In this document: positions 20,715-60,968 of the stretch, in pieces | How the letters are laid out: each line of letters begins with the position of its first letter | Numbering within the stretch: position 1 is the stretch's first letter | Assembly (NCBI GenBank): GCA_964016885.1 | Contig: OZ024741.1 | Span: forward strand, 383,842,001-383,906,000 | Direction of reading: 5' to 3' | Length of the DNA stretch: 64,000 nt | From: Eledone cirrhosa | Lineage: Eukaryota | The notes under the pieces: model-generated | What the model was told of the DNA's origin: nothing | Seen by the model: only the letters and a program-made list of their open reading frames with translations | Databases searched by the model: none | Translations under genes and position numbers: made by a program

Positions 20715-21002
20715 TATAAGGAAAATAAATGAAATCGAAAATGCAACTGGAGTCTTTTTATATAAAAATATATATTTATTTGGTTCCTTTACCGGTTTCG
20801 CAGTTCTTCTGCTTTTCAAAAGTAGAGTTGAGATGGAGGGCTTGTGGTTTTTCTCAGATGTGAAATAAACCACAAACCCTCCATCTCAATTCTACTTTTG
20901 AAAAGCAGAAGAACTGCGAAACCGGTAAAGGAACCAAATAAATATATATTTTTATATAAAAAGACTCCAGTTGCATTTTCGATTTCATCTTTTTTCCTTA
21001 TA
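20715..21002. repeat. About 290-bp near-perfect palindrome carrying hammerhead motifs, next to (TA)n
   Basis: Arms about 20715-20855 and 20860-21002 are reverse complements. Confidence 0.9.
20895..20930 (+). ncRNA. Minimal type I hammerhead ribozyme-like motif, U3-A8 core variant (mirror copy on - at 20787-20822)
   Basis: CUU-UUGAAAA-GCAG(AAGAA)CUGC-GAAA-CCGG-UA-AAG. Confidence 0.6.
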
Positions 21003-21615: not shown

Positions 21616-24447
<2,832 letters not shown>

Positions 24448-24657: not shown

Positions 24658-25168
24658 ATTGTTATACTTTGGGAGGGTCATGTTGCCAATAAGAAACACA
24701 CGCACGAGTTGCTTTCACTTCAATTTATTATAATAAATTTATAAATTTAGCAATTTATAAATTTCTGGTTGGTTGGTTGGTTCCACAACCAGACAGTTGT
24801 TTATATATTGTCAAAGTTCTTTCGTCACACATTCTGTGACCTCTTCAATGACTGGGGATTCTTTTCTTTGTTTTTGTGCCTCTCCTTTGTTCTGTCCTAC
24901 GCCTGTCCCAACAAAATGGCGTAGGACAGAACAAAGGAGAGGCACAAAAACAAAGAAAAGAATCCCCAGTCACTGAAGAGGTCACAGAATGTGTGACGAA
25001 AGAACTTTGACAATATATAAACAACTATCTGGTTGTGGAACCAACGAACCAACCAACCAGAAATTTATAAATTGCTAAATTTATAAATTTATTATAATAA
25101 ATTGAAGTGAAAGCAACTGGTGCGTGTGTTTCTTATTGGCAACATGACCCCTCCCAAAGTATAACAAT
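24658..25168. mobile_element. About 510-bp palindromic element carrying hammerhead motifs (family B)
   Basis: Arms of about 245 bp are reverse complementary; a homologous palindrome lies at 31997-32524. Confidence 0.85.
24969..25011 (+). ncRNA. Minimal type I hammerhead ribozyme (mirror on - at 24810-24852 with C3U)
   Basis: GUCA-CUGAAGA-G-GUCACA(GAAUG)UGUGAC-GAAA-GAAC-UU-UGAC. Confidence 0.75.
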
Positions 25169-31996: not shown

Positions 31997-32518
31997 GATA
32001 TTGTTATACTTTGGGAGGGTCATGTTGCCAATAAGAAACACACGCACCAGTTGCTTTCACTTCAATTTAATTTATTAAATATTTATAAATTTACAAATTT
32101 ATAAATTTCTGGTTGGTTGGTTGGTTCCACAACCAGATAGTTGTTTATATATATATAGTCATAGTTCTTTCGTCACACACTCTGTGACCTCTTCAGTGAC
32201 TGGGGATTTCTTTCTTCGTTTCTGTGCCTTTCCTTTCTTCTATCCTACGCCATTTTGTTTGTCAAACAAAATGGCGTAGGATAGAAGAAAGGAAAGGCAC
32301 AGAAACGAAGAAAGAAATCCCCAGTCACTGAAGAGGTCACAGAGTGTGTGACGAAAGAACTATGACTATATATATATAAACAACTATCTGGTTGTGGAAC
32401 CAACCAACCAACCAGAAATTTATAAATTTGTAAATTTATAAATATTTAATAAATTAAATTGAAGTGAAAGCAACTGGTGCGTGTGTTTCTTATTGGCAAC
32501 ATGACCCTCCCAAAGTAT

Positions 32519-32524
<6 letters not shown>
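31997..32524. mobile_element. About 530-bp essentially perfect palindromic element (family B), between (TA)n tracts
   Basis: Centre attttgttt-gtc-aaacaaaat at about 32262. The extension 31940-31996 matches 24599-24657. Confidence 0.9.
32323..32367 (+). ncRNA. Minimal type I hammerhead ribozyme (mirror on - at 32157-32201)
   Basis: AGUCA-CUGAAGA-G-GUCACA(GAGUG)UGUGAC-GAAA-GAAC-UA-UGACU. Confidence 0.8.
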
Positions 32525-32553
<29 letters not shown>

Positions 32554-42706: not shown

Positions 42707-43088
42707 CATACATTCCTATATATATATATATATATATATATATACTTATATATATATATATATATATATATACAGTATATATATATATATATATATATAT
42801 ACAGTATATATACATATATATATATATATAGGAAAATGTATGACCCGACGGCAGAGGTTATTCCGTTTCGACGGCTATTTCTGGATGTCCAGAAATAGCC
42901 GTAAAAACGGCTTGAGCTCTGCCGTCAGGGTCATATATTTTCCTATTACCCACTCTACTACCCTAAGTATTGAGTACTCTGGTGCTATGGTCCATCTGGT
43001 TCCTTACCACAACTCCTTCGTTATATATATATATATATATATATAAAGATAGCGTAGAAAATACAATGCAACGGGAGGAAACAATACC

Positions 43089-43130
43089 ACCACTGACGAT
43101 GTTGCAGATGTGCAACGAAAGAACTTTGAT
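43089..43130 (+). ncRNA. Minimal type I hammerhead ribozyme (divergent family B)
   Basis: ACCA-CUGACGA-U-GUUGCA(GAUG)UGCAAC-GAAA-GAAC-UU-UGAU. The element ends in gaccctcccaaagtataacaa(ta)n at about 43335. Confidence 0.75.
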
Positions 43131-43329
43131 AAACTATATATATGTGTTTGTGTCTATATTGTATCTGTATTTTTGACCGTTGGTCAGTCAATGGCAACAT
43201 TGAGGACCGAATAAATTAAATTAACCGATATAAAAGACACAGAAGCGAAAAGCGAAAACCAACCAAACAGTGAGTGTGTTCTGTTATTAATTCTGGCAAT
43301 ATTACACATATACGACCCTCCCCAAGTAT

Positions 43330-43393
<64 letters not shown>

Positions 43394-43439
43394 TGCCAAC
43401 TCGTTTTCGAGTACGGCCACTACTTTATATCCATGTAGG

Positions 43440-43995
43440 AGAACCCCTAGCGATGCGCTGAACGAGTGTGACTTTTTAGTCCAGCCAGCGACTTGAAAAC
43501 TCTGGTACAGACACTACACTTGTGACAATTATTGACACATAGTGCTGGGCCCAGGGTACCATGTGACGACAAGTGCAGAGAGATCTCCAGATATAAAGCA
43601 ATGCCTGTGCCGTGAAGCTTTTATAGTGAGCAAAGGCACTGCACAAAGCCAGTCCCACTCTCTTAACCAAGATGATATTTACCAAAAAGAAGAACAAGTC
43701 AACATCATTGGATACCATCAGGGTTGCAGGTGTTATATCAGAGTTTTCCTTCTCCTAGAATTCTGCCTTGACAAAGGCTAAGGGGTCATCTCTCCCGGTG
43801 ATTTTGGATGGTCATTGACTCTTAAGAGCTCCTTTGGCCTTTTGACAGGTTTTGTTTTTAGTCCTGCAGGATGTCCAAAGTCACCCTCTTCACCAAGAAA
43901 CCTTGCTGGGGTTGCCAGTTTAGTCGCCAACGACCCGACCATGAGACAGGTTGTACTGGGATACATGTTACCAGTAGCACCAACTGGTGACCTGA
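43440..43995 (-). mobile_element. Probable RTE-type LINE 5' fragment
   Basis: GC-richer island sharing ttctcctagaa..tgccttgacaaaggcta with the reverse complement of 7870-7910. Confidence 0.45.
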
Positions 43996-60048: not shown

Positions 60049-60968
60049 AGACGAAAACATTTTAAATGTCTTTCCGCGTTATCAAACCTGAAAACTTGAG
60101 AAACATAAATACCCATTCATTCATCTTTATTTACTATAAATATTATTTCTTCCCTCTTTCTCTGTTTCTCTGCATCCCCTTCTCCCCCTCCCATTCTCCA
60201 TCCCCCCCCTATCTATCTATCTATCTATCTATCTATTTATCTTATCAATCCTTATAATGGATGAATTTCCGAGAGGTCTGGCGTGATGACCACATTTAAA
60301 AAAGTATTCAATACACTGACAAATATAGACATCTTTATTTTATATAGAAATGACTACTACGGGACTAGAACTGGTTTCTTTCATTCGTATTAAAATCATC
60401 AGGAAATTTTGTGTGACTTTCTCATGATTTTATGTAAATGAAATCATTTCTTTCAATCGCTCCTATCTATATTGTCTCTGTCTATCGTTGTTGTTGTTTT
60501 TACCTTTCCATTGCTCCTTATCTATGAAGTGACTTCCCACTTCTGAGACAGTTTCTAGACACCTTTTGAATTTCAAGTTACTGTTAAACATATCTTGATG
60601 CAGAAGCTCAACGAGTGCATTCCTATTGTACACACAAACGCACGCACGCAAACACACACACACATACACACACGCACGCACACAAAAACACACACACATA
60701 CACACTGAAGCACGCACGCAAACACACAAACACACACTCATACACACACACACACACATACAAAGAGACAGTAACTTAGACATACCACACCCACGTAATT
60801 TTTTACTCTTAGCTTACGCATACACTCAGCAACTGACACACAGACACATTCAATAACATACAATCGCACATAAACACACACACACACTCAGTTACAGGCA
60901 TCGATACATATCCAATAACTTACACACAGATACACTGAATAACTTGTACGTAACACGCACACACAAAT

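Follow-up and report, generated by a model that had tools for sequence, protein, structure and literature searches.

We found that the element at positions 43045-43334 of the window (the whole analysed stretch of 64,000 nucleotides of Eledone cirrhosa DNA) is the truncated 3' end of a Penelope-like retroelement (PLE) with a minimal hammerhead motif, and that selection acting on source-element RNA is the likely reason why stem II of this motif stayed paired. We give this reading a probability of roughly 0.6. The first-pass annotation had proposed selection on the RNA structure from three copies in the window, which alone are weak statistical evidence because they represent only two lineages. 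The proposal is supported by the pairing of stem II in 14 lineages, by 28 copies with a CG/CG intermediate, and by an excess of G-U-tolerant over mismatched stem II states. Pairing kept by selection is no demonstration of cleavage: in the lineage of the window copy (family A), both helix I and loop 3 are degraded.

The window copy is a solo, 5'-truncated 3' end (pLTR) of 290 bp on the plus strand, as judged from other genomic copies and from the ORFs upstream in longer ones. A tblastn search found no match in the window, indicating that this copy has no remaining ORF. It lies inside (TA)n, with 43335-43388 on its right and a shorter (TA)n at about 43022-43044 on the other side (no strand assigned). 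A comparison of termini showed that the copies have in common the pLTR terminus GACCCTCCCCAAGTATAACAA (43314-43334, plus strand). Among 149 termini, 58 were followed by (TA)5 and 44 and 27 by two family tails of 30-50 bases (71/149 tailed). There were at least 40 family A copies at 94-98% identity, scored out of 258 candidates in the 3.0-Gb genome. A hammerhead pattern covering both stem types gave 21,057 genomic matches and its reversed control gave 0, so the pattern is not due to chance; by hand count, the first 100 matches listed comprised 71 from family B and 29 from the A side.

Family B is represented in the window by two fold-back insertions (no strand assigned). The one at 24658-25168 has arms that are 94.6% identical, a core at 24973 on the plus strand, and a mirror copy near 24850 on the minus strand with U at C3. 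The other, at 31998-32526, has 264-nt arms that are 100% complementary, cores at 32328 (plus) and 32196 (minus), and A at H17. Longer copies of both families extend upstream into an ORF with the reverse transcriptase (RT) motif YxDD, a linker, and a GIY-YIG-type end (VVY..YIGET). The linked ORFs of the two families are 61% identical over 324 aa, so the flanks of the motif are homologous, and the element at 43089, which had been annotated as family B, belongs on these comparisons to a sister family (family A) of the element at 24969 and 32323.

Several features identify the element as Penelope-like. RT is followed by GIY-YIG in one ORF, as in endonuclease-bearing PLEs, and the copies include partial-tandem pLTRs, inverted 5'-truncated copies and a terminal tail. 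At one locus (L065) two elements are in tandem, with motifs 5.1 kb apart. Both ORFs examined (P0001 and P0002) have a C-X4-C-X2-C linker between RT and endonuclease, which conforms to the CX2-5CxxC linker of Neptune/Nematis. Pfam searches with 32 aligned relatives detected GIY-YIG in 8/32 and RVT_1 in 1/32; P0001 and P0002 searched singly against Pfam and PDB gave nothing useful, with no match for P0001. As judged from its sequence, the element is a Penelope-like element with a Neptune/Nematis-type linker, the comparison with these clades being based on their published descriptions. The sections of Craig et al. (2021, PMC8557442) that describe Neptune and Nematis list further shared properties: a C-terminal GIY-YIG domain, a CCHH-type motif, partial tandems, inverted truncated copies, a tail, microsatellite targets and a pLTR hammerhead. 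Naiad, described in the same paper, differs, and we rejected assignment to it since the endonuclease motifs here lie after RT, at the C-terminus, and not at the N-terminus. We also rejected a non-LTR retrozyme. According to the available text on metazoan non-LTR retrozymes (10.64898/2026.07.22.740005), these likewise have a type I hammerhead and are linked to PLE pLTRs, but they are non-coding tandem units, whereas the copies here are dispersed 3' ends of coding elements, the window copy being solo and 290 bp long and the long copies carrying the ORF.

The motif in the window copy is on the plus strand. The 5' strand of helix I (ACCA, 43089-43092) pairs with its 3' strand (UGAU, 43127-43130), the third pair being a C-A mismatch. 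The core CUGACGA (N7 = C) and an extra unpaired U at 43100, between A9 and G10.1, occupy 43093-43100. Helix II (43101-43116) has 6 bp, GUUGCA/UGCAAC, closed by the loop GAUG. It is followed at 43117-43126 by GAA, a helix III of A-G/C-U around a non-palindromic AA loop (from the sequence, the registers and duplex energies), and the triplet CUU; the predicted cut site is after 43126. A scan of the window for hammerhead cores with paired stem II gave five matches: 24973, 32328 and 43093 on the plus strand, the mirror core at 32196 on the minus strand, and an unrelated AT-rich match at 60402.

Most properties of the motif agree with the minimal hammerhead (min-HHR): CUGANGA, GAAA and NUH in type I order, the extra base between 9 and 10.1, the pair G10.1-C11.1, and a helix II of more than 4 bp. 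In contrast to the palindrome expected across 15.2-16.2 and loop 3, the G15.2-C16.2 pair is present but the AA loop is not self-complementary, and for this reason we classify the motif as a variant of the PLE min-HHR. Helix I is 4-5 bp in family B; in family A it has 2 bp, the C-A mismatch and then 1 bp, compared with about 2-5 bp in published min-HHRs. The mismatch is present in nearly all A-side copies from the middle zone of the tree (see below) onward, and the loop 3 palindrome AGUACU was seen only in the oldest copies (L179 and L180). Duplex energies indicate that a helix III dimer with the AA loop is about 7 kcal/mol weaker than one with AGUACU. The predicted monomer fold contains only helix II in family A and helices I and II in family B. 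We rejected a type III reading through the upstream mirror arm, since this arm is missing from the solo copy and the closing of helix I follows the type I order. Rfam gave no hammerhead-family match at E up to 10 for 43060-43160, and no hammerhead among the 150 listed of 178 matches over the window, where hairpin-like microRNA matches occurred below threshold only. From its sequence, the motif is a minimal type I hammerhead of a known kind, in a degenerate variant, for which cleavage is a prediction only.

The known kind is the min-HHR of metazoan PLE pLTRs, with the consensus CUGANGAH-G..C-GAAAN..NUH (Cervera and de la Pena 2014, PMC4209133). The accessible part of that paper describes the extra unpaired base that separates A9 from G10.1, families rich in compensatory changes, and weak cleavage that occurs only as dimers, and the dimer model is repeated in the review literature (PMC6765202; PMC6466107, as available to us). 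The window motif fits the consensus, and published rows with an AG-xx-CU helix III and CUU or CUA triplets exist; the closest among the supplement rows available are Oikopleura (AG-AU-CU, CUU) and Marsupenaeus (AG-CG-CU, CUA). PMC11875169 makes no mention of CUU triplets. The motifs here differ from the published ones in a non-palindromic loop 3 (AA, or GA or AG), in the mismatched helix I of family A, and in the extra base of family B, which is G where the consensus has H (PMC4209133, in the part seen). The Poseidon element PAc of Anolis is likewise a PLE with a hammerhead in its pLTR, a tail and AT-rich targets; its hammerhead overlaps the ORF start, whereas the motif here is found 200-270 bases downstream of the ORF and about 220 bases upstream of the terminus (PMC11167929, in the sections available).

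Loop 3 varies across subfamilies, being UA in the oldest copies and otherwise AA, AG or GA (for example L222-L241, L114, L179 and L180). Many small PLE hammerhead variants were reportedly described by Lunse et al., and these may include non-palindromic loops. The GA form, which is very abundant, accompanies H17 = A and characterizes a large family B subfamily (92 among 100 listed; 4,090 pattern matches). By prediction, tandem G-A makes the dimer about 4 kcal/mol stronger, and purine-purine loops may form tandem non-canonical pairs there. Beyond helix I, A-side copies (L002, L147 and others) have AUAG on the 5' side and CUAU on the 3' side, which could add 4 bp after an internal loop; the G of this extension is lost in the window copy and a few others.

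Comparison of the three window copies largely bears out the first-pass annotation with respect to stem II. We found GTTGCA at 43101-43106 and TGCAAC at 43111-43116 in the element at 43089, and GTCACA/TGTGAC at 24981-24997 and in the 32328 copy. These are the two compensatory changes that had been described: pairs 10.3 and 10.4, which covary, differ on both sides (U-A to C-G and G-C to A-U). GAAAGAACT is common to the elements at 43089, 24969 and 32323, as noted before. N7 is C at 43089 and A in the other two, and H17 is U at 43089 and 24969 and A at 32323. Variation had been described as limited to these tolerant positions, but the extra base (U vs G), loop II and helix I also differ. Helix I is ACCA/UGAU with the C-A mismatch at 43089 and GUCA/UGAC in family B, and it contains a third two-sided change (A-U vs G-C) that had been overlooked. 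The elements do have a common terminus, although the letters first given for it were one base off (GACCCTCCCCAAGTATAACAA has C in place of the quoted A), and the TA said to follow it is not present in the right arm at 24969, where an extra C precedes TT.

Stem II is paired well beyond these two families. In 14 lineages, 54/56 core-anchored stem II positions were paired, 50 of them as Watson-Crick pairs, compared to a shuffle mean of 17, so the covariation does not disappear in a larger set. Because four other in-genome families in this set were selected by eye from motif matches, the eight protein-found lineages are the fairer test; 31/32 of their positions were paired. None of 100,000 shuffles reached 54/56 or 31/32. 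The protein-based search identified 15 metagenome loci encoding relatives; in 11 the identity was 36-48% along long stretches. The core motif was present in 7/15, about 90-170 bases after the ORF match, in a search that did not require pairing. Among the other 8/15, without a core motif, three had less than 160 bases downstream, two were short matches, and three (L100, L105 and L109) had none. By eye, helix III is palindromic and helix I is paired, with different letters, in 5/7 of the metagenome motifs (L101, L103, L104, L106 and L107). A second overlapping core-like match in each of L098 and L104 was left out of the 14-lineage test. Stem II was 99% paired, with two two-sided pairs, in 31 copies sampled without selection (19 distinct), a figure behind which there are only two lineages.

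Core variants at metagenome positions L101:1239-1275 and L104:3754-3795 comprise U3-A8 (as reported for Schistosoma) and a swapped U15.1-A16.1, with palindromic helix III. Within the genome, a search for other hammerhead families gave 2,384 matches vs 287 for the control, and the minimal hammerheads present include at least four further types whose stems are unrelated (L069, L075, L081, L068 and L091). The commonest of these has stem II GAGAU/AUCUC and helix III AAUU or AUAU, and it follows a different Penelope-like ORF (L076 and L084).

Taken with the copies of families A and B, these data support a hammerhead fold and selection on stem II pairing, as judged from sequence. We rejected covariation among the inserted copies themselves: of 100 listed copies changed at position 10.2, only about two or three had a matching change in the partner (by eye). 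The evidence supports selection on the replicating source elements and not on inserted copies, which decay without compensation.

To order the stem II states, we used two trees, one of 130 and one of 101 copies, in which the variable positions of stem II were masked. Written as the two variable pairs on each strand, the older A-side copies hold CA/UG, CG/UG, CG/CG, UG/CG and UG/CA. The trees form a ladder on the A side, with CA/UG oldest and UG/CA, which includes the window copy, youngest; CG/UG, CG/CG and UG/CG copies fall in a narrow middle zone within which the tree gives no order. CA/UG is common to the oldest A-side copies and family B. By this placement, both compensatory changes arose on the family A line. 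We infer that, after the split from family B, the source lineage walked from CA/UG through CG/UG, CG/CG and UG/CG to UG/CA by way of G-U wobbles. The wobble steps are calculated to cost at most about 2 kcal/mol relative to paired neighbours, and the mismatch steps about 4 to 5. TA/TA was rejected as an intermediate, since it occurred in 2 of 100 listed copies, both in the family B background. Contigs from four runs have the same variant sites, without linkage.

Counts of the stem II states are in agreement with such a path, with limits. There were 1,356 UG/CA copies, and CA/UG made up 52 of the first 100 listed of 502. In the middle background (CUGAUGA-U with a 4-base loop), all 76 genomic copies listed comprised 28 CG/CG, 8 CA/CG, 18 CG/CA and 22 CA/CA. 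Genome-wide, G-U-tolerant states outnumbered mismatched states 159 to 48 (159 being 187 minus the 28 CG/CG). In a matched interval of the CUGAUGA-U background there were 71 wobble singles (34 + 37) vs 9 mismatch singles, together with 13 TG/TG and 4 CA/CA. As controls, family B had 17 wobble vs 22 mismatch copies, and CpG decay elsewhere in the element, after two pattern-selected sites were removed, was near even (TG 32 vs CA 28). The ratio on the largest contigs, 38 vs 4, overstates the genome-wide one: beyond contig C8 the excess is only 75 vs 35, and mismatched copies, at 48 in total, are not rare. The mismatched CA/CA and CG/CA states are concentrated on the later, smaller contigs, which may have stronger CpG decay or duplicated segments. 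Some of the mismatched copies lie in clusters (four CA/CA on C22, three on unplaced contigs), which may reflect duplication. Compared to flank CpGs of mid-age copies (19:11, a small control), the genome-wide excess is not significant (p 0.12). The path itself is four substitutions in one lineage. The chance that four substitutions form two whole pairs is 15/495 and that of a mismatch-free order is 6/24, and because copies are not independent events, small p-values overstate the evidence. Five of 6 UG/CG copies, compared to 5 of 27 UG/CA copies, were nearer the older flank type, in a test that is partly circular.

The same counts bear on the possibility that the two-sided changes came from mutation bias and DNA repair without selection on RNA, either by CpG decay of a CG/CG source or by correction between hairpin arms. 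All four changes are transitions at CpG, TpG or CpA, and double decay of CG/CG can yield CA/UG as well as UG/CA. Mismatched decay products exist, gathered on smaller contigs, and flank CpGs of mid-age copies lean to TG (19 vs 11). However, pure decay would require each CpG to survive with a probability of 26% and would give about 160 TG/TG copies (229 doubles, 70% TG/TG), whereas about 25 were observed, and three flank CpG sites mostly survive in older A-side copies. Because CA/UG is the older state, common to family B, the CpGs must first have been gained. Correction between DNA arms would not be expected to favour G-T steps, and distant lineages with unrelated stems still pair. This alternative is already weakened, and we consider it improbable. 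Still less probable, to the point that we give it very little weight, is that the wobble states arose by A-to-I editing of element RNA that was then copied back into DNA. Both wobble states are sense-strand A-to-G changes from paired parents, and the flanks of older UG/CA copies have more A>G (3.6%) than T>C (1.8%). But hyperediting was not seen in the 10 wobble copies examined (A>G 2.1%, T>C 1.8%), and family B, whose arms match those of the CA/UG parent, had no wobble excess (17 wobble vs 22 mismatch). Young family A had only 4 UG/CG copies in an interval that holds 19 in the older background. Editing could not produce the C>U, G>A and U>C steps.

A stronger competitor, though on balance unlikely, accepts selection on stem II and the core but assigns them a non-cutting role, such as a folded landmark bound by the element's protein, with cutting relaxed or lost. 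The helix I mismatch and the lost loop 3 palindrome were fixed in the source line, yet this line amplified to thousands of copies, and published min-HHRs cut weakly (PMC4209133, accessible part). In the sections of PMC11167929 available, insertion of the anole element in vitro was unaffected by hammerhead mutations, and the cut site did not coincide with the end of any read; the dispensability of cleavage for insertion in vitro keeps a non-cutting role alive. Against it, the subfamilies all retain the complete set of catalytic core bases, the pairs A15.1-U16.1 and G15.2-C16.2, and U, A or C at H17. This conservation is partly circular because the pattern searches demand the core, but the core was also mostly kept in 30 loci found by DNA similarity. 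In addition, the large family B subfamily switched loop 3 to GA, with its stronger predicted dimer.

Under the preferred reading, that of a hammerhead selected in replicating RNA, selection on helix II would act in the RNA of the source elements that are being copied. By analogy with published PLE hammerheads, two motifs in tandem or partial-tandem transcripts would pair through helix III, and the paired motifs would cut slowly after CUH, probably with help from the element's own protein; such dimer cutting would trim multi-copy RNA. The anole PLE hammerhead, in the text available, was shown to cut only with its protein present and was not needed for insertion in vitro (PMC11167929), whereas cutting here is predicted. 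Points against full function are the helix I C-A mismatch, the AA loop 3, the 48 mismatched copies and the solo copy without a partner. The window copy is probably inert, because it has neither a dimer partner nor an ORF. In read-through RNA of the fold-back insertions of family B, a long duplex would be expected to trap the motif.

The class of motif is published, and covariation among families was noted in 2014, so the earlier observation is a confirmation; the modest new element is the age-ordered allelic series. A search of the accessible literature found no report of such a stepwise path or of the family A hammerhead, and the part of PMC4209133 available reports no step-by-step path through subfamilies. 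We tentatively suggest, as a possibility we hold at somewhat under even odds, that the compensatory walk of a ribozyme helix by way of G-U intermediates is preserved in full among the dead copies of one genome, while pairing in helix I and the palindrome in loop 3 were lost from the source line. If true, this would be direct evidence for selection of the Penelope hammerhead fold during retrotransposition, and the selected part would be helix II and the core rather than fast RNA-only dimer cleavage. It would also put at hand a natural allelic series for what PLE hammerheads do, a role still called unclear in the text seen of PMC8557442. Age-ordered variants of stem II, helix I and loop 3 in one lineage would argue that pairing mattered in vivo and would supply variants to assay.

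Other repeats surround the element in the window. Directly to its right, in the same (TA)n, is a young repeat of about 600 bp (43389-43990; copies 91-98% identical) that often lies beside Penelope copies in the other genomic loci examined. Directly to its left is a short fold-back repeat of another abundant family (42831-43022; 69 BLAST pieces in genomic loci and the window). Two adjoining open frames of 301 and 473 aa at 21911-24224 encode, by motif only, a non-LTR retrotransposon reverse transcriptase. A 316-aa open frame at 684-1634 has a cysteine cluster and an RHD motif and resembles the C-terminal region of a further non-LTR element, and its sequence also flanks loci L057 and L067. Another fold-back at 20715-21002 has 142-nt arms that are 96% complementary, with 4 bases between them.
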